Shown here: positions 9,219-26,614 of the stretch, one piece after another | Position numbering within the stretch: position 1 is the stretch's first letter | Layout: each line of letters begins with the position of its first letter | Origin: Flavobacteriaceae bacterium | GTDB taxonomy: Bacteria; Bacteroidota; Bacteroidia; Flavobacteriales; Flavobacteriaceae | Assembly: GCA_965224465.1 (NCBI GenBank) | Contig: OZ245049.1 | Coordinates: 3,990,001-4,022,000, forward strand | Reading direction: 5' to 3' | Length of the DNA: 32,000 nt | Notes under the pieces: generated by a model | Told to the model about the DNA's origin: nothing | The model's input: the letters and a program-made list of their open reading frames with translations, nothing else | The model's database searches: none | Position numbers and translations under genes: made by a program

Positions 9219-11603
9219 ATGGAATTATTAGTTAAATTTCTACCTGCATTTGGTGTGGGTGCATTACTGTTTGTATTCTTTAAAAACAAATGGGTTACGA
9301 AACAAGACGCAGGAGAAGCCAAAATGGCTCGAATTGCAAAAGACATTGCCGATGGTGCAATGTCCTTTTTAAAAGCTGAATACAAAGTGCTTTCCATTTT
9401 TGTAGTCGCAGTAGCAGGCTTGTTATTTTTAAAAGGAACCTATGAAGACGGTTCTAACGGAATGATTGCTGTATCATTTATTGTCGGAGCTATTTGTTCT
9501 GCATTGGCAGGATTGATAGGGATGAAAGTAGCGACAAAAGCAAACGTAAGAACTACACAAGCTGCTAGAACTTCTTTAGGAAAAGCATTAGAAGTTGCTT
9601 TTGCTGGTGGTGCCGTAATGGGCTTGGGAGTTGTAGGTCTTGGTGTCTTAGGATTGAGCAGTTTGTTTATCTTATACCAAGGGATGTGGTCTGGTAATGA
9701 AAATTTAGCATTGGTATTGAATGTTCTTTCGGGCTTTTCATTAGGAGCCTCTTCCATCGCTTTGTTTGCCCGTGTAGGTGGTGGTATTTATACCAAAGCT
9801 GCAGATGTAGGAGCAGATTTAGTTGGAAAAGTAGAAGCTGGAATTCCAGAAGATCATCCTTTAAACCCTGCAACTATTGCTGATAATGTTGGGGATAATG
9901 TAGGAGATGTAGCAGGAATGGGAGCGGATTTATTCGAATCTTATGTGGGGTCAATTATTGGAACCATGGTGCTTGGAGCTGTATATGCTACCTTGCCAGA
10001 ATTTTCGGATCAATTTGATGGCTTAGGGGCTGTGTATTTGCCATTAGTATTGGCAGCTGTAGGTATTGTAATGTCCATTTTAGGGACATTTTTTGTACGT
10101 GTAAAGGACGGAGGGGATCCTCAAAAAGCATTGGATTTAGGAGCATTTGGTTCTGCTGGATTAATGTTGGTGGCCTCTTATTTTATCATTCAACAAATGT
10201 TGCCAGAATCTTGGGTGGAAGCTGGAATTACCTATACTTCTATGGGGGTTTTTTGGGCAACCATAGCGGGGCTTGTTACAGGATTATTAGTAGGAAAAGC
10301 TACAGAGTATTATACCGCAACAGGTAAGCCTCCAGTAATGTCTATTGTAAAACAATCTGAAACGGGTGCTGCAACTAATATTATTGCAGGTTTGGGTGTA
10401 GGGATGATGTCTACTATGATTCCTATTTTATTAATTGCAGCAGCTATTATGATATCTCATCATTTTGCAGGTTTGTACGGTATTGCTATTGCAGCTGTAG
10501 GGATGTTAGCAAATACGGGGATTCAATTGGCAGTAGATGCCTATGGTCCTATTTGTGACAATGCTGGAGGAATTGCTGAAATGGCGGAATTGCCAAAAGA
10601 AGTACGTGAACGTACCGATAAATTGGATGCCGTTGGAAATACGACAGCAGCTATTGGAAAAGGATTTGCTATTGCTTCGGCTGCCTTAACTGCCTTGGCT
10701 TTATTTGCAGCCTTTATGAAAACTGCTCACGTGACTTCTATTGATGTTTCTAAACCAAATATAATGGCAGGATTGTTAGTAGGAGGGATGTTGCCCTTTG
10801 TTTTCTCTGCCTTGTCTATGAATGCTGTGGGGCGTGCGGCAATGGCAATGATTGAAGAAGTGAGACGTCAGTTTAAAGAAATACCTGAATTAAAAGCTGC
10901 CTTGGAGGTGATGCGTAAATACGATTCGGATATGTCTAAAGCAAGCGCAGAAGATAGAGCTATTTTTGACAAAGCAGATGGCGTTGCTGATTATGGAAAG
11001 TGTATTGATATCTCTACCAATGCGTCTTTAAAAGAAATGGTGCTGCCAGGTTTATTAGCAATTGTTGTACCAGTGGTTGTTGGTTTTTTGGGAGGTGCAG
11101 AAATGCTTGGTGGACTTTTAGCTGGGGTTACTACCTGTGGTGTGCTTATGGCAATATTTCAGTCCAATGCTGGTGGTGCTTGGGACAATGCAAAAAAGAC
11201 TATTGAAGAGAATGGAGGGAAAGGAACCGATGTTCATAAAGCATCTGTGGTAGGTGATACCGTTGGTGATCCTTTTAAAGATACTTCGGGACCTTCTTTA
11301 AATATTTTATTAAAATTAATGTCTGTAGTAGCTTTGGTGATTGCACCGAGTATTGCTTTAGATGTGGATAAAATAGAGGTAAAATCGGAAATAGGGCAAG
11401 TTCAGTTTATGGAAAATATGACGAGTCAAAAGGAAGCTCAAATAGCAGTCGTAATTAATAGGAGTTCTGATGGGACCATAAAGGAAACAGTTAGGTCTAG
11501 TGACGGGAGAGCTACTCATGGAATAATTATTAAGGAGGGAGTTGTGGAAAAAGCAACGCTTAAAGGGACTCCCCGTGATAATACCAATTACAATCTAAAA
11601 TGA
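9219..11603 (+). CDS. hppA: Membrane-bound proton-translocating pyrophosphatase (H+-PPase) with a non-membrane C-terminal tail of about 75 aa
   Basis: Multi-TM 794-aa ORF with H+-PPase signatures ([67 protein letters not shown]). The ORF continues past the last hydrophobic helix. Its last codons and the TGA stop lie inside repeat copy A. Confidence 0.9.
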
Positions 11604-11656
11604 CCGATATAAATAATTCCATTTCTAAACCGTCATTTGGAAATGTATTTGGTATA
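11581..11656 (+). repeat. Dispersed repeat family, copy A (short form: 5' module joined directly to 3' module)
   Basis: ATACCAATTACAATCTAAAATGACCGATATAAATA + ATTCCATTTCTAAACCGTCATTTGGAAATGTATTTGGTATA. It aligns to both ends of copies B and C and overlaps the last 8 codons and the stop of hppA. Confidence 0.8.
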
Positions 11657-11691
11657 AGAATGTAAAATAGCTGTACTAATTTTAGTGGACT

Positions 11692-11726
11692 AAAAAAAAT
11701 GCTCGCAAACTGCGAGCATTTTTTTT
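11692..11726. terminator. Bidirectional intrinsic terminator between hppA (+) and the S9 peptidase (-)
   Basis: AAAAAAAAT GCTCGCA aac TGCGAGC ATTTTTTTT, with an A-run and a T-run flanking a GC-rich hairpin. Confidence 0.8.
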
Positions 11727-11799
11727 GAGTAGTACTGTTATGGAAAATGAACAGTGATTTTGTAGAAAATGTATTGGAATTAGGTTTTACCTAGATTGT

Positions 11800-14316
11800 T
11801 TAATTCTTCATTTTATCACGATTCATTTCAATGATATCTACACTGTTATCTGTATTTCCTAAAAAGTATTTGCTAAAGTGATCTGCTCGTAGCCAAAAGG
11901 AATACTCTGTCATTTTTCCAAAACTATGGCGTTGTCCAGGCATGATCATAAAGTCAAAACGTTTGTGGGCTTTTATGAGTGCATTGGCCATTCTAATTGT
12001 TGCTCCAGGGTGTACATTATTGTCTACATCGCCTGTGATTAATAGGAGTCGTCCTTTTAAATTACTAGCGAGTTCTTGGTTTTTATCAATTGTATATTTG
12101 TATTTAATTTTACCATCGGCATCTTTTTCCGCCAATACTCCATTGTGTGTTTCACTCCACCAGCTATTGTAGATGCTATTGTCGTGATTTCCAGCAGAAG
12201 AAACAGCTACTTTAAAAAAGTCGGGATATTGCAATATAGCAGCAGTTGACATAAATCCACCTCCTGAATGTCCGTAAATACCTACTTTTTCAATATTGAT
12301 AAAAGAATGTTTATCGGCTAATTGTTCTGCAACGTATTTTTTATCCGCGAGTCCGTAATCTCTTAAATTTCCATATCCGTAATTGTGATACCATTTAGAA
12401 CGGTTTGGATGTCCTCCTCTGTTTCCTAGTGTTACTACAATAAAACCTATTTGTGCCATACGGTCAACTCGATCCATTCTCAAAGAAAAAGCTTTGTTTA
12501 CGGCTTCGGTTTGTGGCCCAGGGTATACGTATTCTAATAAAGGGTAACTCTTTGTTTGATCAAAGTCAAAGGGTTTGTACATAACACCGTAAATATCTGT
12601 GATCCCATCGTCTGCTTTCATTTTAAATGTTTCCGGGAATTTATAGCCTGTGGCGAATAATTGAGATAAATCGGCCTCCTCTAATTTCATGATAAGGGAA
12701 CCATTATTGCTGCGTAATTCAGCAATTGGAGCTGTGTTTACCCGAGAGTAATTACTTACAAAATAGCGCTTAGAATCTGCCATGCTTGTTTTGCTAGTAA
12801 AATTACCAGGGTTTAAGTTTTTTAAGCCCGTACCGTTTAAGTTAATTTTGTAGAGGTGTTCGTAATACGGGTCTTGATCTTTACTGACACCGTTTGCTGT
12901 AAAATACAAAACGCGATTTTTTTCGTCTATGTTTTTAAAGCTATTTACGTGATATGCTCCAGAAGTTACTTGGTTTTTTAAGTTTCCTTTGTTGTCGTAT
13001 AGATAAAAATGTGCCCATCCATCACGCTCAGCCCAATGTAATAGTTCGGTTTCGTTATTAAATAATACTAAACTTCGTTTTTCGATATAAGTGTTAAAAC
13101 GTTCCTTAATAAGTACCTTGCTTTCTCCTGTTTGGATGTCAGCCACACAAATATCTAAGTTTTTACGGTCTCTGCTGATTGTGCTGTAATAGATTTTTCC
13201 TTTTTTTGATAGTAAGCGTGAAGGACGGAAATCGTCATCCATTGTTGCTTTTTTTCTAGGGGCTCTATAAATAGAAATTCCTTGTTGCACCGTGCTGTCA
13301 AGCGCTACATTTATTACTTTCTTGGTAGGGATGTCAAAAATCAACAATTCCTCTTTTGCAAATTCTTGTTCGCCAGGCATGTGGTATTTATAGGTTTCTA
13401 ATGTTGGACGTTTTTTAGCTACCGAATTAATTACCCATAAGTCTTTTAGCATCCGTTCGTCACTGCGTTTGAAAACAAACTTTTTTGAATTGTGAGACCA
13501 AACTCCCCAAATGTTTTTTCTGTCGTCTTTTTTCTTTTCTTTGCTCTCGTTGTTTTGTCCGTAGGTGCCTCCTCCGTAGTTGTAGTTTTCTACACCGTCT
13601 TTGGTCCATTGATGTTCTACAATTGTACTGTCTTTTTCGTCTTTAACTGCTTTTAGAAAGTTTTCTTTGTCCATCCAAAATAAGTTGAAATTTTTAGAGA
13701 AAAGAACAATAGTACTATCAGGAGCTATGTTTGCCCATTTTTCCCATTTCTTTTCTTTTTCTTTTTCAGTGTCAATGACCGTAAGTTTATTTCCTCCCAA
13801 TTTGTACTCTAAATGATATACTTTAGATTCCATTTTAGGTGCTTTTTTTTCTGATTTTTTAATGTCAGTACTGTCTTTTTTTTGAGCGTCCTTTTTAGTT
13901 TCTTTTACGGCTACTTTTTCTGTAGCTGTTATTCTAAAACGAATGGCGGTTTCGTTTTTGACAAATTTAAAACTGAACTTTGGTAAATGTTGTGAGTCGT
14001 AGGGGTCTTTGGTGATTAACGTGAGCCATTTTGCCATTTTTTCGTTGTCAAAAAGTACTTTCTTTGTGCGTTTATCGGCGTTTACCAAATAATAATTAGA
14101 TCCATTTGTAGTTTTGTATTGGTACCAGAATCTATTTCCGTTTTTTAACCAATGTGCTCTAACCTTTGTGGAATGTACCAGTTTTCCTAAATTTTCAGGA
14201 GCGTACTTTGCTGCCAATCGATAATTAGGTGTAGGTATTTTCGAAACTTGTTCTTCTTGAGAAAAGAGTGTATTCACACTTAAAAAAAGCGCAAAAATAA
14301 TGAATGTATGTTTCAT
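11800..14316 (-). CDS. S9-family serine peptidase, DPP-IV-like (N-terminal propeller plus alpha/beta hydrolase)
   Basis: 838-aa ORF with a signal peptide (MKHTFIIFALFLSVNTLFSQ). The C-terminal catalytic domain has the nucleophile elbow GIYGHSGGGF and downstream Asp/His contexts (GDVDNNVHP, PGQRHSF). Confidence 0.85.
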   Translation of the reverse strand: MKHTFIIFALFLSVNTLFSQEEQVSKIPTPNYRLAAKYAPENLGKLVHSTKVRAHWLKNGNRFWYQYKTTNGSNYYLVNADKRTKKVLFDNEKMAKWLTLITKDPYDSQHLPKFSFKFVKNETAIRFRITATEKVAVKETKKDAQKKDSTDIKKSEKKAPKMESKVYHLEYKLGGNKLTVIDTEKEKEKKWEKWANIAPDSTIVLFSKNFNLFWMDKENFLKAVKDEKDSTIVEHQWTKDGVENYNYGGGTYGQNNESKEKKKDDRKNIWGVWSHNSKKFVFKRSDERMLKDLWVINSVAKKRPTLETYKYHMPGEQEFAKEELLIFDIPTKKVINVALDSTVQQGISIYRAPRKKATMDDDFRPSRLLSKKGKIYYSTISRDRKNLDICVADIQTGESKVLIKERFNTYIEKRSLVLFNNETELLHWAERDGWAHFYLYDNKGNLKNQVTSGAYHVNSFKNIDEKNRVLYFTANGVSKDQDPYYEHLYKINLNGTGLKNLNPGNFTSKTSMADSKRYFVSNYSRVNTAPIAELRSNNGSLIMKLEEADLSQLFATGYKFPETFKMKADDGITDIYGVMYKPFDFDQTKSYPLLEYVYPGPQTEAVNKAFSLRMDRVDRMAQIGFIVVTLGNRGGHPNRSKWYHNYGYGNLRDYGLADKKYVAEQLADKHSFINIEKVGIYGHSGGGFMSTAAILQYPDFFKVAVSSAGNHDNSIYNSWWSETHNGVLAEKDADGKIKYKYTIDKNQELASNLKGRLLLITGDVDNNVHPGATIRMANALIKAHKRFDFMIMPGQRHSFGKMTEYSFWLRADHFSKYFLGNTDNSVDIIEMNRDKMKN

Positions 14317-14446
14317 GATAAGGGACGTGATTGTTTTTTTTGGTGAAAATACGAAGTTACTATTTCGTGTTTTATTGAGCAGGTGTTAAATGTTAAAATT
14401 ACCCTAATAATTGACACTGATTTTGAAGTAAAGATGAGGCGTAAAA

Positions 14447-14469
14447 AAAACGCGTTAGTTGCGCGTTTT
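14447..14469 (-). terminator. Intrinsic terminator downstream of the deoxynucleoside kinase gene and repeat copy C
   Basis: The minus strand reads AAAAACGCG caactaa CGCGTTTTTTTT. Confidence 0.6.
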
Positions 14470-14478
14470 TAAGTGTGT

Positions 14479-14640
14479 TATACCAAATATATTTCCAAGT
14501 GACGGTTTAGAAATATAATTATTTTTTGTTTTAGTTAGGCGAGAAATGGAAGAACAGCCTTAGCTATCGTTCTGTTTTTTAACAACGCTAGCACGTAAAA
14601 TAAACTATTTATATCGATTATTTTGGATTGGAATTGGTAT
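14479..14640 (-). repeat. Dispersed repeat family, copy C (long form, about 162 nt, inverted on the plus strand)
   Basis: The reverse complement aligns along its whole length with copy B. Shared blocks are ATACCAATTCCAATCCAAAATAATCGATATAAATAGTTTATTTTACG.., ..ACGATAGCTAA.., ..CTAAAACAAAAAA.., and ..ATTTCTAAACCGTCACTTGGAAATATATTTGGTATA. It starts 17 nt after the kinase stop, in the same orientation as that gene. Confidence 0.8.
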
Positions 14641-14656
14641 TAGAATGGGTGTTGTT

Positions 14657-15271
14657 TTAAAATAATCCATTTATTTGTGCATCTATCTTATCTATAATAG
14701 TCCCTAGATCCTCGGGTTTTGAAACAAAATCTAAATTATCTATATCTATTATTAATAGTTTTCCTTTGTCGTAATTTGTAATCCATGCCTCATAGCGTTC
14801 GTTCAAACGACTCAAATAATCTATACTTATTGAGTTTTCATACTCTCTGCCACGTTTGTGAATTTGACCTACTAATGAAGAAATAGAACCACGCAAATAA
14901 ATCAATAAATCTGGAGGTGATACAAGTTGCTCCATCAATTCAAATAGCGATGAATAGTTTTTAAAATCACGATTGGTCATCAAGCCCATAGCATGTAAAT
15001 TTGGCGCGAAAATACGTGCATCCTCATAAATGGTACGGTCTTGAATAATTTCTTTTCCACTTTTTCTGATTTTCAAGATCTGCCTAAATCTGCTGTTTAG
15101 AAAATAAACTTGTAAATTGAACGACCATCGTTCCATCTCGCCATAAAAGTCATCTAAATATGGATTTTCATCCACCGATTCGTAATGTGGTTCCCAGTTG
15201 TAATGTTTAGATAAGAGTTTGGTTAGCGTTGTTTTACCTGCTCCAATGTTTCCGGCAATGGCTACGTGCAT
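14657..15271 (-). CDS. Deoxynucleoside kinase (dCK/dGK family)
   Basis: 204-aa ORF with the P-loop AGNIGAGKTTL and dNK-family blocks (ERWSFNLQVYFL, QDRTIYED). Confidence 0.85.
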   Translation of the reverse strand: MHVAIAGNIGAGKTTLTKLLSKHYNWEPHYESVDENPYLDDFYGEMERWSFNLQVYFLNSRFRQILKIRKSGKEIIQDRTIYEDARIFAPNLHAMGLMTNRDFKNYSSLFELMEQLVSPPDLLIYLRGSISSLVGQIHKRGREYENSISIDYLSRLNERYEAWITNYDKGKLLIIDIDNLDFVSKPEDLGTIIDKIDAQINGLF

Positions 15272-15344
15272 ACTATTTGGTGTTCAAAATTTATAAAAAA
15301 TAAAAGTAATCAAATTTTTATAATTATACGGTGTATATAGTTGT

Positions 15345-16019
15345 CTAAATAATCAATTTATAACCTACACCTCGGATATTTAGTATTTTAATGCTTGTGT
15401 CTTTATTTAGTTTTTTACGTAGTTTACTTATAAAGACATCCATGCTTCTTGCATTAAAAAAATCATCATTTCCCCATAATTTATTTAAGATATAGGCTCG
15501 TTCTAATACCTTGTTTTTTGATTGGTATAAATAAAATAATAAGTCGGATTCTCTGTGTGTGAGTTCTGCAGCTATGTTATCATGGAAAAGCAATTGTTTG
15601 GTGTTGTCAAATGTATATGTTCCTATTTTAACGGTGCTTGACCCCTTGGTCTTCCTGTGTAATAAGGCTTCTATTCGAACGATCAATTCTTCCATAGAAA
15701 ATGGTTTTTTTAAATAGTCGTTGCCTCCGATATGAAATCCTTCTATTACATCTTTTACCTGTGATTTTGCCGTTAAAAAAATAATGGGAATAGAATTGTT
15801 AGACTGCCTGATTTCTTTGGCAACTGTAAATCCATCTTTTAAAGGCATCATCACATCCAACACTAAGATGTCTGGTGTATTGGTCTGATAATGGGCGATA
15901 GCTATTTGTCCATTGTTACATAAATCCACCTCAAAATTTCGTGTTTCTAAGCTCTCTTTTATAATCTGTCCTAAAGAGGGTTCGTCCTCTGCCAATAATA
16001 TTTTAATAAGATTGCTCAT
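15345..16019 (-). CDS. Two-component response regulator, OmpR/PhoB-type winged-helix DNA-binding
   Basis: 224-aa ORF with an N-terminal receiver (ILLAEDEP, LVLDVMMP, FLTAK) and a C-terminal trans_reg_C-like domain (LTHRESDLL..VFISKLRKKL..IRGVGYKL). It overlaps the upstream kinase gene by 17 nt. Confidence 0.9.
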   Translation of the reverse strand: MSNLIKILLAEDEPSLGQIIKESLETRNFEVDLCNNGQIAIAHYQTNTPDILVLDVMMPLKDGFTVAKEIRQSNNSIPIIFLTAKSQVKDVIEGFHIGGNDYLKKPFSMEELIVRIEALLHRKTKGSSTVKIGTYTFDNTKQLLFHDNIAAELTHRESDLLFYLYQSKNKVLERAYILNKLWGNDDFFNARSMDVFISKLRKKLNKDTSIKILNIRGVGYKLII

Positions 16020-17445
16020 GGGGTAGTTTTATAATGAATGTGTTGTTTTTGGATCCTTCAATATGAATGGTTCCTCCTGTTTTTTTAATGATGCTTTTGC
16101 AATAATACAAACCGATTCCAAAACCTTTTACCGTATGTGTATTTCCTGTCGGAATGCGATAAAATTGTTCAAACACCTTTTTTTTATGTTGCTTTTTTAT
16201 GCCTTTTCCATTATCTGAAATGGCTAATGTAATCTCATTTTTATCTTCTTTTAAATCGATATAAACCTTATAATTCCCATATTTTACAGCATTGTCTAAC
16301 AAATTATTTACCGCATTTTCAAAATGAAATTCATCTACCTTATAATGGATGTTAGCATTTGGTATATGGACTTTAAATTGATAGTTCGTATGTAAAGATT
16401 GATGTTTAGCCACTATTTTTTCTATTAGTTTACTCAGGTTTATCTTTTCAAATTCCGATTTTCGCTTGTTTAAAGAGGCTGTTTCTAATAGTTTTTCAAC
16501 CATATATTCTAGTTTTTCTAGTTGTTGCGTAGAAGTGTCTAAATATATTTTTGTTTTTTTTGGATCTTCTAGTCCTCCAAAATTTTGCAGGCTTTCCAAG
16601 GCAACTGAAATGGTTGCAATAGGGGTTTTAAATTCGTGAGTGATATTACTAATCAAATCATTTTTAATCTCAGAGAGTTGCTTTTGATTGTTGATAATGT
16701 GCAATAGATAAAACAGACATCCAATAATGCAACAGGATAGTAATAATGATAGCATGATCCCTGTGGCACTTCGCCTAAGGGCACCAGCAAATGGATTACT
16801 GAAATACAAACGGATGTTTTCGTTCTTTTTTAGAAAAGTTGATTTTGAAGATACAGATAGGTATTCTAGCTTTGATAAATAAAATTTAGGGTAAAATAGA
16901 GTGTCATTTTTATAATGATAGAGTTGCTTTGAAACCTTAATGTTTCGTTGTTTTAATTGGATATTTAATAAGGAGTCTACTTGAGAATAGGCTATAGTAT
17001 CCTGCTGAAAAGAAATAATTATTTTAGTTAACCCTTTTATTAACTCAAGACTGTCTCCTGATTTTTCCCCCTTTAAGATGATAATGTTGGAAATGTTTTC
17101 AGGTTTTAGTTTATTGAAATCATCTATTTTATACAGTTGTTTTTTCTTGTCCTGATGGGTGGTTTTATTTGAGCTAAGGGAAACAAAATGTTTCCTAGAA
17201 CTGTTATTAAAGGTGGATGTATATGTTTTAGGATCTCCTTTTTCAATTATAGAAAAATAATTATTCTTTGCTATGTCTGCATAATATTCTTCTAAGGAAT
17301 TGTCCAAACTCAATTGGATTTCGTTGACGATACGCTGTTTGTTGACAAGGTAATTATTGTAATTCCAGTATAATTGTGCTGCTATGGTTAGTGTAATTGT
17401 CAGACTGATTAAAATTAATAAATAGCTGTATTTTGATTTATTCAT
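16003..17445 (-). CDS. Sensor histidine kinase (two TM segments, extracytoplasmic sensor region)
   Basis: 480-aa ORF. One TM helix is near the N-terminus and a second is around residue 230. It has the H-box ISNITHEFKTPIATI and ATPase N/G boxes (LLDNAVKYG, SDNGKGI, GFGIGLYYCK). Confidence 0.85.
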   Translation of the reverse strand: MNKSKYSYLLILISLTITLTIAAQLYWNYNNYLVNKQRIVNEIQLSLDNSLEEYYADIAKNNYFSIIEKGDPKTYTSTFNNSSRKHFVSLSSNKTTHQDKKKQLYKIDDFNKLKPENISNIIILKGEKSGDSLELIKGLTKIIISFQQDTIAYSQVDSLLNIQLKQRNIKVSKQLYHYKNDTLFYPKFYLSKLEYLSVSSKSTFLKKNENIRLYFSNPFAGALRRSATGIMLSLLLSCCIIGCLFYLLHIINNQKQLSEIKNDLISNITHEFKTPIATISVALESLQNFGGLEDPKKTKIYLDTSTQQLEKLEYMVEKLLETASLNKRKSEFEKINLSKLIEKIVAKHQSLHTNYQFKVHIPNANIHYKVDEFHFENAVNNLLDNAVKYGNYKVYIDLKEDKNEITLAISDNGKGIKKQHKKKVFEQFYRIPTGNTHTVKGFGIGLYYCKSIIKKTGGTIHIEGSKNNTFIIKLPHEQSY

Positions 17446-17484
17446 GATTCAAAAATAAGGACTTATTTTTAAAAAATAACTGAC

Positions 17485-17509
17485 TTAACAGTCGTTAACA
17501 CTAATTAAC
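17485..17509. promoter_or_regulatory. Three TTAAC(A/T) direct repeats at exact 10-nt phasing (candidate OmpR-type response-regulator site)
   Basis: TTAAC starts at 17485, 17495 and 17505 (cTTAACAgtcgTTAACActaaTTAACTaag). The site is in the divergent region between the kinase/regulator operon and the GLPGLI gene. It ends about 22 nt upstream of the TATGTTTG -7 box. Confidence 0.4.
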
Positions 17510-17531
17510 TAAGTCATACGCTATTCTGTTT

Positions 17532-17539
17532 TATGTTTG
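17532..17539 (+). promoter_or_regulatory. Bacteroidota-type -7 promoter box (TAnnTTTG) for the GLPGLI gene
   Basis: TATGTTTG lies 22 nt upstream of ATG 17561. Confidence 0.4.
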
Positions 17540-17560
17540 TAGACATAAAATATTTATATC

Positions 17561-18370
17561 ATGAAAAAAAACTATACCATTTTAGCCTTGTTCTTGTCGA
17601 TGGCTGTTTGTGCGCAGTCATTTACTGGAAAGGCGCTGTATCAAAGTAAACGCATAGGGGACATTAAAATAGAATCTAAAGGAATGGGAGGGGCACAACA
17701 AGCACAACTTCAGGAAATGCTAAAAAAACGATTCGAAAAAGTATATGAATTGCATTTCCATAAAACAACATCCTTGTATTATGAACAAGAAAAATTAGCA
17801 ACACCTACTGCAAAAATGACGGGTGGAATTCAAATTGTAATTGAAGAGGGAAGTAATAATAAATTATACAAAGATATCAAGGAGGAAACGTATGTGGACA
17901 AAAGAGATATGATGGGGAAGTTGTTTTTGATAGAGGATCACTTAGAAAAACTAGATTGGAAATTAGAAAAGGAATCAAAAAAAATAGGTAATTACACCTG
18001 TTTTAAAGCTGTAGCCATTGAAGAATATGAACATAAAAAATTTATGACAGATAGCATTACGTTAAAATCGAGAAAAATAATTGCATGGTATACGCCAGAG
18101 ATTCCTGTGAGTCATGGACCAGGAAAATTATATGGATTACCAGGTTTAATTTTAGAAGTGGCAGAAGGAAAGAACCTATTATTGTGTACTAAAATTGTAT
18201 TGAATCCTTTGAATGCAGTGCTGATTAAGCAACCAAGACGAGGAAAAAAAGTAAGTCAAAAAAAGTATGATATCATTAAGTATAAAAAATCAAAAGAAAT
18301 AATGAAACGCTTTAGAGGAAGTAGGAAAAAGGGAAAAGGGAATCAAATAACAATTGAAGTAAGGGACTAA
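17561..18370 (+). CDS. GLPGLI-family protein (secreted, function unknown)
   Basis: 269-aa ORF with a signal peptide (MKKNYTILALFLSMAVCAQ). The family-defining motif is literally present (KLYGLPGLILEV). Confidence 0.75.
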   Translation: MKKNYTILALFLSMAVCAQSFTGKALYQSKRIGDIKIESKGMGGAQQAQLQEMLKKRFEKVYELHFHKTTSLYYEQEKLATPTAKMTGGIQIVIEEGSNNKLYKDIKEETYVDKRDMMGKLFLIEDHLEKLDWKLEKESKKIGNYTCFKAVAIEEYEHKKFMTDSITLKSRKIIAWYTPEIPVSHGPGKLYGLPGLILEVAEGKNLLLCTKIVLNPLNAVLIKQPRRGKKVSQKKYDIIKYKKSKEIMKRFRGSRKKGKGNQITIEVRD

Positions 18371-18549
18371 GTGTGCTTTGTGTGTCCAGTTAATTTTTGA
18401 TGTATGATTTTTTTGACAGAAACTTTAAATAAGGGACTAAACTAAAATTAAAAACAGCTAAAAAAGGCTTGGAGGAATGTTTGGGAGGATGTCCAGTAGG
18501 AATTGTAATTGGTGTAAAAAAAACATCAACCTAATTTAGAATTAAACTC

Positions 18550-21243
18550 ATGAGAAAAATAGTTTTTATTATCGCATTGTTAAGCATAACAAGTGCGTCT
18601 GCCCAAGTTAAAGTGATTGGGTTTATAAAAGACAGTATTGGAAATCCCTTAGAAATGGCTAATGTGATTGCTTTGAATAAAGCAGACAGTAGTATGGAGG
18701 ACTATTCTATTACGGATTCTAAAGGGAAATACCGTATCAATTTGAAAGAAAAAGGGATCTTTCAAGTGAAAGTGAGTTATGTTGGTTTTAAATCAAAAAC
18801 GTTTACTGTGGATACCAATAGCTCAGAAAAAAGCTTGCAAAAAAATATCACGTTGTATGCTCAAGATAATACTTTAGGGACGGTAACCTTAACTTATGAA
18901 ATGCCTGTGACAATAAAGGGAGATACTATTGTCTATAATTCTGATTCTTTTACCAATGGCACAGAGAAAAAGTTAGAGGATATTATGGAAAAGCTTCCTG
19001 GTGTGGAAATAAATAATGAAGGTCAGATAGAAATAGAAGGCAAAGTTGTAAAGAAAGTGATGGTAGAAGGAAAAATATTTTTTGACGGAGACACCAAATT
19101 GGCATTAAAAAATATTCCTGCGGATGCTGTGAGTAAAATTGAAGTCCTTAAAAATTATAATGAGGTTGGTCAACTGCGTGGATTGGGTACTGATGAAGAC
19201 AATGTAGCTATTAACATCAAATTAAAAGAAGGGAAGAAAAATTTTTGGTTTGGTGAAATCACTGCTGGTGGAGGACTAGATAGCCGCTATATTATCCATC
19301 CAAAATTGTTTTATTACAGTCCAAAACAAAGCATCAATATTATTACCGATATGAATAATACGGGTGAAGTTCCGTTTACATTTCGTGATTATATTAATTT
19401 CACAGGTGGAATGCGTCGTATGGGGTCTGGGACTGTTTTAGAGAGTTCCTCTGGAAGTGCAGGGTTGTCTATGTTAAAAAACAACAAAGCTCAAGAGATT
19501 GAAAGTAAGTTTGCGGCAGTTAATTATAATTATGCTGTCAATGATAAAACAAATGTGTCTGCTTTTGGGGTTTATTCAAATACGGATACTCAGATGTTTA
19601 CTGGTAAACAGACCGTTAATTATGTTGGTGAGATGTTACATATTGAAGATAAAATCACCACTACAAATCAAGGGAGTGAGTTAGCGATGTTTAAAGGGAG
19701 TTTGAAATATAAACCGAGTGTTAGTTTTCAGTTGGATTATGATGCCTTTATCAAAAAATCAAATACAGATGAATTGAATGCTATAATTTCCTTATCTAAT
19801 ATAGAAGGTGTTTTGAATGAGAACTTATTGGATATAAAGCAGCTTTCGAGTCCGTTTTCCTTTAGTCAAAATGCCAATATGTATTATACATTAAATAAGA
19901 AAAACATCTTTTCTGTAGCCATATTAATGGAATATAACAAAGATAAACCTGTGTATAACTCCATTTCAGAACAGCAACGTTTTGCGATGATACCTTCCTT
20001 GGAAGAAGGGGAGAGCCCATTTAATATAGAACAAATAAAAAAGCAAACAAGTAAAAAGTTAGCTGCTACGTTGGATTACTATTGTGTTATAAATAATAAG
20101 AGTAATGTAAACCTAACTTTTGGAGCTTTGTTGAGTGATCAAAAATTAGTATCGGCTATCAATCAAAAACTGAAAGATGGAAGTCAACTTAATTTTGAAG
20201 ATGTTAATTTATTAAATAATGTGAAATATGATTTTTTAGACAGCTATATGGGACTACGTTATAAATTTATAACCGGGGTTTTTACGTTCACTCCTGGTGT
20301 AATTCTACATCATTATTCGTTTGGGAATACGCAATTGGGAAGAGAAGAAACAAATTCGTTTACTAAATTGTTGCCTGATTTTTATGTAAAAATATCCTTT
20401 GGGAAGTCAGAGAGTGTCAATTTAAAATACAATATAACCACTTCTTTTACAGACGTAAATAGGTTGGCAGAAGGAACTGTTTATTCTAATTATAGTACCT
20501 TGTTCTCGGGGAATAGGAATTTAGACAATGCCTTGTATGAAAATTATTCCTTAAACTATTTTAATTTCAGAATGTTTAATTTTACTAATATCTATGCTCG
20601 ATTAAATTATACTAAAAAGAAAAAGGCGATTAAATTTAGTTCGGTTATTACAGGGATTGATCGTGTAAATACCGTGGTAAATATCGATGATCCTGAAGAT
20701 TCATTTTCTGCAAGTGCTCGTTATGGTCGTCGTTTTAATACCTTAAAAGTAAATTTGAAGGGTAGTTATCGATTGAACAATTATAATAATATTCAAAACA
20801 ATAGTATTAGTAAGACCACTTCGGGAACTCAAAGCTACAAAGCGAGGTTGGGAACTAATTTTAAAGAATGGCCAAATATGGAAATTGGCTATCAGCAAAC
20901 CTATAATAAGTTTGAAAGTGATAAGAGTGTGGATTCGTATAAAACACATCGTCCTTTTGTGAACCTAGAAATAATTTTCTTGAACGACTTTACCTTAACG
21001 GCTGATTATAGTTATTATCAATATAAAAATAAAAGTGGCTCCATAAACAATACGTATTCCTTTTTAAGTAGTAATTTGTATTATCAACAAGGCGATAGTA
21101 AATGGGAATTTAAATTAGCAGCGACCAATTTATTGGATACAAAAACAATAAATAAGGATAGTTTCTCTGAATTATATAGTTCGTCTTCTCAGTATTTTGT
21201 ACAGCCAAGATATGTAGTGCTCAGTGTGAAATATAATTTGTAA
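18550..21243 (+). CDS. Outer-membrane beta-barrel family protein with N-terminal CarboxypepD_reg-like domain (TonB-receptor-like)
   Basis: 897-aa ORF with a signal peptide and a CarboxypepD_reg-like start (VKVIGFIKDSIGNPLEMANVIA..VSYVGFKS). A plug-like segment follows (GDTIVYNSDSF..LEDIMEKLPGVEI). The barrel is long and Tyr/Asn-rich and ends ..YVVLSVKYNL. This is the usual partner of GLPGLI genes in Bacteroidota. Confidence 0.75.
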   Translation: MRKIVFIIALLSITSASAQVKVIGFIKDSIGNPLEMANVIALNKADSSMEDYSITDSKGKYRINLKEKGIFQVKVSYVGFKSKTFTVDTNSSEKSLQKNITLYAQDNTLGTVTLTYEMPVTIKGDTIVYNSDSFTNGTEKKLEDIMEKLPGVEINNEGQIEIEGKVVKKVMVEGKIFFDGDTKLALKNIPADAVSKIEVLKNYNEVGQLRGLGTDEDNVAINIKLKEGKKNFWFGEITAGGGLDSRYIIHPKLFYYSPKQSINIITDMNNTGEVPFTFRDYINFTGGMRRMGSGTVLESSSGSAGLSMLKNNKAQEIESKFAAVNYNYAVNDKTNVSAFGVYSNTDTQMFTGKQTVNYVGEMLHIEDKITTTNQGSELAMFKGSLKYKPSVSFQLDYDAFIKKSNTDELNAIISLSNIEGVLNENLLDIKQLSSPFSFSQNANMYYTLNKKNIFSVAILMEYNKDKPVYNSISEQQRFAMIPSLEEGESPFNIEQIKKQTSKKLAATLDYYCVINNKSNVNLTFGALLSDQKLVSAINQKLKDGSQLNFEDVNLLNNVKYDFLDSYMGLRYKFITGVFTFTPGVILHHYSFGNTQLGREETNSFTKLLPDFYVKISFGKSESVNLKYNITTSFTDVNRLAEGTVYSNYSTLFSGNRNLDNALYENYSLNYFNFRMFNFTNIYARLNYTKKKKAIKFSSVITGIDRVNTVVNIDDPEDSFSASARYGRRFNTLKVNLKGSYRLNNYNNIQNNSISKTTSGTQSYKARLGTNFKEWPNMEIGYQQTYNKFESDKSVDSYKTHRPFVNLEIIFLNDFTLTADYSYYQYKNKSGSINNTYSFLSSNLYYQQGDSKWEFKLAATNLLDTKTINKDSFSELYSSSSQYFVQPRYVVLSVKYNL

Positions 21244-21287
21244 TTTAAGGGTATAGGAAAGGAATTGCCGAAGAAGGATTAGGACTT

Positions 21288-21444
21288 ATATCAACTACAA
21301 TCTAAAATATCCGATATAAATAGTTTGTTTTATGTCTTGTCGTTATTAAAATCAGTACGATAGCTAATTTTGTGTTTTTTACCTAGCTAAAACAAAAAAA
21401 CAATTCCATTTCTAAACTGTCACTTGGAAAATGTATTTGGTATA
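21288..21444 (+). repeat. Dispersed repeat family, copy B (long form, about 157 nt)
   Basis: ATATCAACTACAATCTAAAATATCCGATATAAATAGTTTGTTTTATG...ACGATAGCTAA...CTAAAACAAAAAAACAATTCCATTTCTAAACTGTCACTTGGAAAATGTATTTGGTATA. It starts 45 nt after the OM-barrel stop. Confidence 0.8.
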
Positions 21445-21573
21445 AGTTTTTTAGAAGTGAGGAGAAATTTTAACTTAAACCAGTTATTTTATTTGTTGTC
21501 AGGTAAAATGATTGTTAGTCTTTTAAAAGCAAAAAAAAATGTAGGGAAACCTTGTTGATATGAGTAAATTTAT

Positions 21574-21627
21574 AAACGAAAAAAAGCCTGTAACACTTAT
21601 GTTTTACAGGCTTTTTTTTCGTTTATA
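21574..21627. terminator. Bidirectional intrinsic terminator between the OM barrel gene (+) and metK (-)
   Basis: Extended palindrome ATAAACGAAAAAAAGCCTGTAA...TTACAGGCTTTTTTTTCGTTTAT. Confidence 0.8.
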
Positions 21628-21637
21628 AGAATACTTT

Positions 21638-22891
21638 TTAAATTTTAAAAGCATCTTTTATTTTTGCAACATAGTCTAATTTTTCCCAGGTAAATGTTTC
21701 CACTTCTTTTTCGAAAACTTCTCCACTTCCAGAAACAAATTTCACTATTTTAATCTCTGGTGTACGTCCCATGTGTCCGTAAGCTGCTGTTTCGGAATAA
21801 ATAGGGTTTCTTAGTTTCAAGCGTTTTTCAATAGCTGCTGGTCGCATGTCAAACAATGTTTGAACAATCTTAGAAATTTGCCCGTCGTTTAAATTAATTT
21901 TGGAAGTACGGTAGGTATCTACGTTGATAGATGTTGGTTCAGCAACGCCAATAGCGTAAGAAACTTGTACTAAAATTTCATTACAAATTCCAGCGGCTAC
22001 CATGTTTTTAGCAATATGTCTCGCAGCATACGCAGCAGATCTGTCAACTTTACTAGGGTCTTTTCCAGAAAATGCTCCACCTCCGTGTGCTCCTTTACCA
22101 CCGTATGTGTCTACGATAATTTTACGACCTGTTAGTCCTGTATCTCCATGAGGGCCACCAATTACAAATTTCCCTGTTGGATTTACATGGTAGGTGATTT
22201 TATCATTGAATAATGCTTGTGTTTTTACGGGTAATTTTGCAATTACACGAGGCATTAAAACATTAATAACATCACTTTTAATTTTAGCTAACATGCTGTC
22301 GTCTTTATCAAAATCATCATGTTGGGTAGAAACTACGATGGTGTCAATACGTTGTGGAATGTTATCATCAGAATACTCAATAGTTACCTGACTTTTTGAG
22401 TCTGGGCGTAAATAAGTAATGTCCGAGTTTTCACGGCGCATCTCTGCCATTTCAATTAAAATCCGATGACTTAAATCCAATGCCAATGGCATGTAGTTTT
22501 CTGTTTCTTTGGTAGCGTACCCAAACATCATTCCTTGGTCTCCTGCACCCTGATCTTCTCCTTCTGCACGGTCTACTCCTTGGTTAATGTCTTGTGATTG
22601 CTCATGTATAGCAGAAAACACCCCACAAGAATTACCGTCAAAAAGGTATTCGCTTTTGGTATATCCAATTTTATTAATAGTATCTCGTGCTATTTTTTGC
22701 ACGTCTAAATAGGTTTTTGTTTTTACTTCACCAGCCAATACTACTTGTCCTGTGGTAACCATTGTTTCACAAGCTACTTTTGAGTTTTTGTCAAAGGCTA
22801 AAAAATGATCGACTAAGGCATCTGAAATTTGATCGGCTACTTTGTCTGGGTGTCCTTCCGAAACGGATTCAGAAGTAAATAAATATGACAT
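21638..22891 (-). CDS. metK: S-adenosylmethionine synthetase (methionine adenosyltransferase)
   Basis: 417-aa ORF with canonical MetK blocks ([45 protein letters not shown]). Confidence 0.95.
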
Positions 22892-22924: not shown

Positions 22925-23001
22925 AACTGATTGTACGGGAAAGGCTAAAGAAAGTAATTGATTACTGCTTTAGCATTTTTTTTATGAGGTTGCAATCAGT
23001 T
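22925..23001 (-). promoter_or_regulatory. Structured 5' leader of metK (nested helices), regulatory RNA class unassigned
   Basis: On the metK-sense strand, a 9-bp outer helix AACUGAUUG/CAAUCAGUU (23001-22993 with 22933-22925) encloses a 7-bp helix GCUAAAG/CUUUAGC (22974-22968 with 22950-22944). The structure lies between a TAnnTTTG box and the metK ATG. Confidence 0.3.
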
Positions 23002-23030
23002 CAAATTCTTCCTCTTTTTAATTTGAGATG

Positions 23031-23038
23031 CAAAGATA
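23031..23038 (-). promoter_or_regulatory. Bacteroidota-type -7 promoter box (TAnnTTTG) for metK
   Basis: The reverse complement reads TATCTTTG. It lies about 140 nt upstream of the metK ATG, which leaves a leader long enough to contain the nested helices. Confidence 0.35.
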
Positions 23039-23282
23039 TACAATTTATAGAAACTGATATAATAAAATACTTAAAAAAACACAATGCAAACCTTTGACTT
23101 TTAAAATTAAACCACCGTTATTTATAGTTGTTCTAAATAGAATTATTGCTTTTGTGTTTTAATTTAATGGATATGTAACTTTATTTTCTGAAGGGTGTAC
23201 TGTCCTTATTTGTCTTTTTTTCTTGTTGTAAAGGAGATAGTATTGAAATTTCGAGGTGTCAATTAACTCCCACAGAGCTGCA

Positions 23283-23302
23283 ATTTCTAAACGGTCACTT
23301 GG
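23283..23302 (+). repeat. Orphan copy of the repeat-family core motif
   Basis: ATTTCTAAACGGTCACTTGG differs at one position from the conserved core ATTTCTAAAC(C/T)GTCA(C/T)TTGG. The flanking modules are not recognisable. Confidence 0.5.
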
Positions 23303-23468
23303 GGGTTTAATTGAATTATATCGTAAAATCATAGTGATAGATTATTCAAAACACCACAGTGATATTGATAAAGACATTCCTGTGAAAACATATATCAGGA
23401 GAGAAAGGACTGATAAAATTTGTAAGAAAGAATCATGTTGTTGTAGCAAGAGTAGTGGTATAATGGCT

Positions 23469-23525
23469 TAAGTGATTTTAAGTGAAGTTTTGTTTTTTTG
23501 ATTTTGTAAGCGGTTTTGTAAGTGA
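23469..23525 (+). repeat. Cluster of short direct repeats TTTT(G)TAAGTGA
   Basis: TAAGTGA occurs at 23469, 23479 and 23519, with a variant TAAGCGG at 23507. Each is preceded by a T-run (GATTTTAAGTGAAG, GATTTTGTAAGCGG, GGTTTTGTAAGTGAA). Confidence 0.45.
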
Positions 23526-23934
23526 ATTGGATTTTAATTTACTTAGTAATAGTTATTTGTCTTTATAGTTGTGTGAAGGCTGTTTTTGATTTCGTATTTT
23601 TAAAAGTAACTTTTAAGAAGAAAAATAAAGAAAAAACGTTTTTTTTGATTAAAAAAATGAAGCCCAGTGTTTGTTTTAACTGAGAATAATTAGATTAAAA
23701 ATGGAAATGAAAGCTTGGCTGTTAACGTTAGGACGTGTTTGTTCATAATACATAAAGAAAATTGTATTATTTCAAGCGAATTCTTGGACGTTGATTTGGT
23801 GTTTAAAAAATGCTATATATTGTTTGTTTTTGTTAGAAATATGTACATTTATCCCATAAAATATAAATGAAAAATGTGCGTGTTGTTCGTATTTAAAAAA
23901 TACTTCCAATAGAAACTCAACAAAAACAAAACAT

Positions 23935-26514: not shown

Positions 26515-26614
26515 TTGTTATTAAGAAAGGCAGAGGGATTAGACCCGCTGAAGCCTTAGCAACCCTTTAATTTTAAAGAAGGTGCTAAATTCTACCAAAT
26601 CGGATAGATAACAA
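26515..26614 (+). promoter_or_regulatory. SAM-I (S-box) riboswitch aptamer upstream of metX-thrA-metB/Z-like operon
   Basis: The sequence matches the SAM-I consensus core almost block for block: UUAUUAAGAAAGGCAGAGGGAUUAGACCCGCUGAAGCCUUAGCAACCC..(P3 hairpin)..AAGGUGCUAAAUUCUACC..GGAUAGAUAACAA. P1 can form between 26515-26522 and 26607-26614. It lies 88 nt upstream of a methionine-biosynthesis operon. Confidence 0.85.

Follow-up and report, generated by a model that had tools for sequence, protein, structure and literature searches.

A repeat family at gene ends in Flavobacteriaceae that is very probably a transposable element of the miniature inverted-repeat type

Transposable elements of the miniature inverted-repeat type (MITEs) are small non-coding mobile elements. 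They are abundant in Flavobacterium, where they have been catalogued by the thousand (PMC11602168), and some, such as QMITE2 and ERIC, are known to reside in 3′ untranslated regions (UTRs) (PMC10969869). ERIC, also called IRU, of the Enterobacteriaceae (including YPAL in Yersinia) is a non-coding imperfect palindrome of ∼70–170 bp with short and internal-insertion forms. It occupies intergenic transcribed sites, including the 3′ ends of genes, in either orientation, and when co-transcribed as a hairpin it can change mRNA decay (PMC10969869). The Correia elements (CREE) of Neisseria and RUP of Streptococcus pneumoniae are MITEs of ∼100–155 bp with terminal inverted repeats of ∼26 bp. They are multicopy, their presence varies by strain, and they are often co-transcribed with neighboring genes (PMC2649163, PMC2229807). 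Here we analyze a repeat family that resembles both groups in these structural and positional features. It was found in 32,000 nt of DNA from a Flavobacteriaceae bacterium (GenBank assembly GCA_965224465.1, contig OZ245049.1, positions 3,990,001 to 4,022,000 of the forward strand), a stretch referred to below as the window. A first-pass annotation of the window had reported three copies of the repeat and offered two readings, a MITE or an RNA element of 3′ UTRs, with a leaning toward selection at the RNA level. Our data strongly support the first of these but not the leaning toward the second: the family is very probably a MITE, copies of which landed between gene ends and terminators.

The three copies in the window, A (11581–11656, plus strand), C (14479–14640, minus strand) and B (21288–21444, plus strand), were verified at the coordinates and on the strands first proposed, and pattern matches bore out the 5′ and 3′ modules ascribed to them. 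The 3′ module pattern (ATTTCTAAACNGTCAYTTGGAAA) was found without mismatch at 11621, 14492 (minus strand) and 21408, and with three mismatches at 23283; the 5′ module pattern had three matches in the window. In dinucleotide-preserving shuffles of the window, which set the chance level, neither pattern had any match. Also as annotated, an internal segment of ∼85 nt is common to B and C and missing from A. Copy A is a short form consisting of the two terminal modules only, with a 73-bp core (TACC...GGTA) at 11582–11654 on the plus strand, a terminal inverted repeat of 24 nt (79%), and ends 97% identical to the family consensus. Copy C is full-length, with a 159-bp core at 14481–14639 on the minus strand. 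Copy B (core at 21289–21442, plus strand) is also full-length, more decayed (85% identity to the consensus), and carries a small internal deletion. Mutual identity among the three is only 82–91%, and none is another's closest relative over its full length; we therefore rejected local duplication as their source and regard them as separate insertions.

The imperfect match at 23283 is a solo remnant of the MITE 3′ end, located within the long spacer between metK and proC. A fragment had been claimed there at 23283–23302; it is real and extends further, to ∼23313 on the plus strand, with ∼28 of 33 positions in agreement with the family 3′ end (counted by eye on aligned sequences). A second possible fragment, at 11765–11784, was discarded, having more than three mismatches to the 3′ end and no nhmmer match. 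The stretch at 18499–18515 (GGAATTGTAATTGGTGT), 35 nt upstream of the start of an outer-membrane beta-barrel gene, has three mismatches to the MITE 3′ terminus and dissimilar surroundings, and is probably a chance match.

An exact-pattern scan of one genome per species identified 12 true copies beyond the window, all of them in North Pond metagenome-assembled genomes (MAGs): Flavobacteriaceae NORP129, NORP150 and NORP167, and one contig binned as Labilibaculum NORP351. (Loci outside the window carry L numbers below.) A thirteenth genome match, in Muribaculaceae, was due to chance. Together with those in the window, this gives the family 15 copies, each at a locus of its own, across the window genome and four MAGs, besides remnants. 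The copies are 85–97% identical to the consensus, and all are intergenic or at extreme gene ends. Homologues of the deoxynucleoside kinase (dNK) encoded next to copy C put the window, part of a 5.24-Mb contig, in a Lutibacter-related clade of Flavobacteriaceae, and the family is apparently confined to that clade. No exact-pattern match to the conserved modules was found in viral contigs, and a full copy had no blastn match among PLSDB plasmids or INPHARED phages. The Labilibaculum copy (L008; JAESUW010000033.1, 2868–3027) is complete. Its 9.6-kb contig comes from the same samples and was binned as Labilibaculum sp. NORP351, a genus of Bacteroidales/Marinilabiliales type. In sub-variant L008 agrees with L005 and L011 of NORP150, and its placement suggests either mis-binning or horizontal transfer. 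JGI metagenome contigs gave four pattern matches. Two of these were chance matches inside other sequence, and the other two (L015 and L017) share a 47-nt match to the MITE 3′ end (L015 2714–2760, L017 102–147; nhmmer E ∼1e-7), just past the terminator of an Xaa-Pro aminopeptidase-like (pepP) gene on an unrelated contig. This 47-nt stretch could be a solo end or could belong to a related family.

The canonical element has a 159-bp core, 5′-TACCAATTACAATCC...GGAAATGTAATTGGTA-3′, with ends that read as TACCAATTACAATCC... and ...GGATTGTAATTGGTA; the 161-nt consensus is ATACCAATTACAATCCAAAATGACCGATATAAATAGTTT...AATTCCATTTCTAAACCGTCACTTGGAAATGTATTTGGTAT. Measured from ATACC to GGTAT, the copies are 75–195 nt long, and no transposase-sized open reading frame (ORF) fits in any of them. 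The 5′ and 3′ modules form imperfect terminal inverted repeats. Inverted ends had been noted before, but over 9 nt, and they are in fact far longer, with arms of 24–26 nt that are 79–81% complementary. Complementarity holds in 87.8% of terminal pair cells across the family (15 copies), compared to 21–43% when the partner is slid. The consensus as a whole is a quasi-palindrome, 69% identical to its own reverse complement (score of 55, versus –5.8 ± 8.3 for shuffles). Its interior is also roughly palindromic, and the best-preserved copies fold as a single long rod. Several forms are seen. The short form (75 nt from ATACC to GGTAT, 73-bp core, ends only) is represented by copy A and L010, at unrelated loci in two genomes. 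A form with an insert of ∼28 nt (L003, L004, L007 and L012) occurs only in NORP167, and assorted internal deletions are present in B, L003 and L013. The inverted repeat, the subfamilies that track genomes, and the presence of the short form at two non-orthologous sites all argue for a MITE. The 73-bp short form also suggests that the ends alone are needed for movement.

Comparisons with related genomes revealed empty sites. Copy C is missing from nine orthologous loci, in which dNK is 96–99% identical and is followed in each case by the stop codon, a ∼24-nt spacer and the same terminator. At the dNK locus, the additional element of 161 nt is present in the window alone, an insertion that comes to 162 bp when one 3-bp duplication is counted (our own arithmetic). 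One of the empty loci belongs to NORP167, a genome that itself carries the family elsewhere. Copies A and B are missing from syntenic loci as well, in the case of B from L018 and L019, and an nhmmer search over the orthologous loci L018–L023 (∼100 kb) found zero copies.

Comparison of the flanks showed that insertion is accompanied by a 3-bp target-site duplication. In 10 of the 15 copies a perfect TAA or TTA lies on both sides of TACC...GGTA, with the same choice of A or T at the variable middle position left and right (permutation p = 0.019). For copy A, TAA is present at 11579–11581 and 11655–11657 (plus strand). For copy C, read on the minus strand, the 5′ TAA lies at 14640–14642 and the 3′ TAA at 14478–14480. 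Copy B has TTA at 21286–21288 on its 5′ side, mismatched to the 3′ TAA at 21443–21445, indicative of a decayed duplication. Other boundaries and lengths (2–6 bp, offsets of 0–3) gave no informative direct repeat besides the 3-bp definition, and a 2-bp TA duplication was rejected because its matches are merely the palindromic part of the inverted repeat. The first-pass annotation had named target-site duplications and insertion inside genes as marks of plain MITE behavior, and both were observed: the ten perfect T(A/T)A duplications, and one copy that lies in the last codons of a gene (hppA). The sequences therefore show what is expected of a MITE, a small non-coding element with inverted ends and a target duplication, found in dispersed copies, polymorphic between filled and empty sites, and divided into genome-specific subfamilies.

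The route by which such copies would arise can be outlined. A transposase encoded elsewhere in the genome would bind both ends and excise or copy the element, which would then insert at a T(A/T)A (TWA) trinucleotide and thereby duplicate it. Copies would survive where harm is small, namely at or just past stop codons and in spacers near terminators. All of the duplications are TAA or TTA, in keeping with the 3-bp TWA (or TNA/ANT) duplication of elements moved by IS5/PIF-Harbinger-type transposases. PIF/Harbinger transposons, to which bacterial IS5 is related, are characterized by a TWA duplication (PMC4482050). Judged only from this clean 3-bp duplication, which points to an IS5/PIF-Harbinger-like transposase, the enzyme would be a DDE transposase of that type.

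Certain observations weigh against classing the family as a MITE. No autonomous partner with matching ends, and no further family match, was found in the ∼250 kb of the window plus loci. Nor did an all-against-all blastp of the ORFs in the sequences that bear copies, 13 in all with the window and 12 loci, reveal any recurrent protein. The spacers of the empty-site relatives have diverged, and the single pre-insertion TAA cannot be read in them base for base. The duplication statistic is based on only 15 copies, five of which have no perfect duplication: the flanks of L003 and L007 do not match, those of L008 differ by 1 nt, and those of B and L013 are discordant. Of these five, L008 and B are the copies least identical to the consensus (at the ends or overall), and L013 is also fairly decayed. 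Finally, six copies lie no more than 20 nt from a stop codon, and sense outnumbers antisense among them by five to one (one-sided p ∼0.11, from our own binomial arithmetic). The MITE model alone does not predict this, and it provides a weak hint of an orientation bias, in a set of copies too small to test.

Several copies adjoin a stop codon or lie close to one. The gene upstream of L001, like that upstream of L005, ends in a TAA that doubles as the 5′ duplication of the copy, and the 3′ duplication of L010, read on the other strand, is a stop codon. Copies C and L011 lie 16 and 12 nt past a stop codon, respectively. In an AT-rich genome, a TWA-targeting element would often strike TAA stop codons or their AT-rich surroundings, and an insertion at a TAA stop would regenerate the stop via the duplication and so be tolerated. 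With native terminators close behind the stop, surviving copies would end up between stop codon and terminator. A stop-restoring duplication may help to explain the occurrence of copies right after stop codons.

The genes around the window copies were identified from Pfam, and terminators were recognized by eye, by a purpose-made scan and by conservation. Upstream of copy A is hppA (9219–11603, plus strand), which encodes a H+-translocating pyrophosphatase (H+-PPase) of 794 aa with PF03030 over residues 15–708. This ORF enters copy A by 22 nt, such that its TGA stop (11601–11603) lies inside the element, and the last seven codons (NTNYNLK) as well as the stop codon are supplied by copy A. The pre-insertion ending reconstructs as ...PRD-KNVK*, with copy A lying four codons before the original stop. 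The C-terminal tail altered by the insertion was already variable among relatives. More generally, the ∼85-residue C-terminal extension past the Pfam H_PPase domain (window 11343–11603; the domain ends at residue 708) is poorly conserved among close relatives. In L020, the spacer downstream of hppA (∼13330–13690) contains a tandem heptanucleotide array, (CAACTAG)n, that is found neither in the window nor in L018. A gene for an S9/DPP-IV peptidase (11800–14316, minus strand) is convergent to hppA, and the two have in common a bidirectional intrinsic terminator (11692–11726), which is native and is kept in relatives without the MITE.

The dNK gene (14657–15271, minus strand) ends 16 nt upstream of copy C, as noted above, and its native terminator (14443–14470, minus strand) is kept in all orthologous loci, ∼24 nt past the stop codon. 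The outer-membrane beta-barrel gene (CarboxypepD_reg and OMP_b-brl_3; 18550–21243, plus strand) has its stop codon 44 nt upstream of copy B. It is convergent to metK (21638–22891, minus strand), and the terminator between the barrel gene with copy B and metK (21574–21627) is conserved in L018 and L019. A and B are thus situated between convergent genes and C alone between same-direction genes. The layout originally described, in which a stop codon is followed by the repeat and then by a terminator, holds for B and C, and the three terminators are present; copy A, however, starts inside the hppA ORF. A ready-made terminator scan, in the region to which it was applied, passed over both of the strong conserved bidirectional terminators (11692–11726 and 21574–21627), in the latter case likely on account of its 3–8-nt loop limit.

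Given these positions, copies A, B and C would be transcribed as long 3′-UTR hairpins, with predicted folding energies of –17 to –27 kcal/mol. By analogy with reports on ERIC and Correia elements (PMC10969869, PMC2649163), such hairpins could incidentally alter mRNA decay. A stronger version of this idea is that the MITE is retained preferentially, or even targeted, at TAA stops in the sense orientation, and that its hairpin has been co-opted as an mRNA-stability or small-RNA (sRNA) module of 3′ UTRs in this Flavobacteriaceae clade. The five sense copies among the six near a stop codon are in line with such a role, as is the coincidence of duplication and stop codon in three copies, yet we consider it unlikely.

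We also find it unlikely that the family is in essence a cis-acting or sRNA-producing RNA element, selected for a sense position in the 3′ UTR ahead of the terminator, with a functional 3′ hairpin whose 14-nt loop is conserved. In the window, each of the three copies has the same orientation as the gene before it and is followed by a terminator, an arrangement also seen for L001 and L005; the excess of sense copies near stop codons points the same way. There is precedent too, as MITE-derived sRNAs and effects on 3′-UTR stability are documented in other systems (PMC10969869). Across the family, however, orientation does not bear out the argument for RNA-level selection drawn from the three window copies. 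In contexts where both neighboring genes run in the same direction, four copies are sense (L006, L008, L011 and C) and three or four are antisense to both neighbors (L007, L009, L010 and probably L003). Another six copies lie between convergent genes, where either orientation is sense to one neighbor. A and B are in this situation, which makes their orientation weakly informative, and C is the one window copy whose orientation can be tested cleanly. Only 5 of the 15 copies (A, B, C, L001 and L005) have a stop codon ahead of them and a terminator behind, and four copies (L003, L004, L006 and L012) lie beyond a terminator. Close relatives, moreover, have retained these genes and terminators without the element, showing that it is not a conserved part of those transcription units.

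Structural comparisons were no more favorable to an RNA element. RNAalifold predicted only a small 3′ hairpin, with a covariation term (+0.22) that gives no support and with eight of nine pairs lacking informative variation. In the six-pair 3′ hairpin proposed in the first pass, five pairs are uninformative, and the sixth is C-G in five copies, U-G in five, U-A in one and unpaired in three. The compensatory change reported for this stem does exist, as one pair change in copy C, but covariation in the hairpin does not exceed that of shuffled controls, being equalled by 153–226 of 500 shuffles. Its supposedly invariant 14-nt loop (TAAACCGTCACTTG) is mirrored in the 5′ module (CAAAATGACCGATA) and hence is part of the inverted repeat. 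The two ends of the element do co-vary with each other (U-A/A-U at pair 8 and C-G/A-U at pair 11), to a score reached by 0 of 500 shuffles. Yet this covariation fails to separate DNA-level from RNA-level constraint and is expected of the ends of transposon subfamilies.

Strand-specific tests gave a similar picture. The sense strand folds well below shuffled controls (z of –1.7 to –7.8), but in 13 of the 15 copies the antisense strand gives the more stable fold, and on the sense strand A·C mismatches outnumber G·U pairs (81.5 versus 39). These comparisons count against selection on a sense RNA and are indicative only, many of the differences being inherited from shared ancestors. The internal region, in addition, is dispensable and rich in indels. 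Over the whole window, no Rfam model matched the repeats at gathering level; the best sub-threshold scores, on copy C and L011, were 8–22 bits against thresholds of 37–290. Flavo-1 (RF01705), with which a comparison had been suggested, matched the opposite strand at 14.5 bits (E = 1.6), below its gathering threshold of 42, so the repeat is not a member of that family.

It is very unlikely that the family is instead a palindromic repeat of the REP/REPIN type, spread by a RAYT (an IS200/IS605-like tyrosine transposase) or by some other structure-specific, non-DDE route. It shares with such repeats a multicopy, intergenic and palindromic character and a location close to gene ends, and it folds into a hairpin over its full length. 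But it has a 3-bp target duplication and long terminal inverted repeats, neither of which, to our knowledge, is produced by REP/REPIN or IS200/IS605 elements. It is also AT-rich and ∼160 bp in length, as opposed to a short GC-rich stem-loop, and the loci that carry copies share no recurrent protein of the sort that an accompanying mobilizing gene might give, in a comparison not aimed at RAYT genes in particular. Nor does the family fit an integron attC site, the imperfect palindrome that closes a mobile gene cassette at its 3′ end beside an integron integrase, as the flanking hppA, dNK and metK neighborhood consists of syntenic core genes that are element-free in relatives.

Elsewhere in the window, two classes of S-adenosylmethionine (SAM) riboswitch lie <4 kb apart. 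A SAM-II (long-loop) aptamer (70.4 bits) is present in the metK leader (22960–23020, minus strand), and a SAM-I/S-box aptamer (80.4 bits) at 26515–26614 (plus strand), upstream of an alpha/beta-hydrolase (metX-like) gene. The latter gene is followed by one for aspartokinase-homoserine dehydrogenase and then by one for a Cys/Met pyridoxal phosphate (PLP) enzyme. The non-coding spacer from the metK leader to proC (23021–23934) is unusually long, at ∼910 nt, and the full metK–proC intergenic gap measures 1043 nt in the window versus 633 nt in L018, the orthologous locus. Neither an ORF nor a recognized feature is present in the additional ∼420 nt (at roughly 23400–23815); the MITE remnant at 23283–23313 is nearby.

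A MITE family of this kind belongs to a known and common type of repeat, useful for annotation and strain typing; its presence is unsurprising and raises no new biological question. Recognizing the family prevents its copies from passing as conserved RNA genes or 3′-UTR motifs, and it accounts for one changed protein C-terminus, that of the H+-PPase. Its insertion polymorphism offers markers for strain discrimination and for checks of MAG binning.

Compared to the described systems, the family is set apart from ERIC by its host phylum and by its 3-bp T(A/T)A duplication, and no sequence similarity was seen between the two. ERIC is generally described with a TA duplication. Correia and RUP elements likewise duplicate TA, in contrast to TWA here. 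The literature on Correia elements also describes promoters formed by their ends, as well as IHF and RNase III sites; in the present family neither a promoter nor an IHF site came to light, in a search that was not a rigorous test. Flavo-1 resembles it in being a repeated, structured non-coding sequence restricted to Flavobacteria, but, given the sub-threshold match, does not include the present family. Within the same phylum, BrickBuilt and MITE239, MITE293 and MITE700 of Porphyromonas gingivalis are also non-autonomous and have ends in common with IS5-family insertion sequences (PMC4596501). Their inverted repeat, GAGACCTTTGCA, is unrelated to the TACCAATTACAA of our family. For our family, no insertion sequence with matching ends was found in the sequences analyzed here, and its IS5-like assignment is inferred. 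The 3-bp TWA duplication is shared with eukaryotic Tourist/PIF-Harbinger MITEs (PMC4482050). Taken together, these comparisons indicate that the family is an ERIC/Correia/RUP-like bacterial MITE, as yet unnamed, and distinct in its sequence, its host clade and its TWA duplication.

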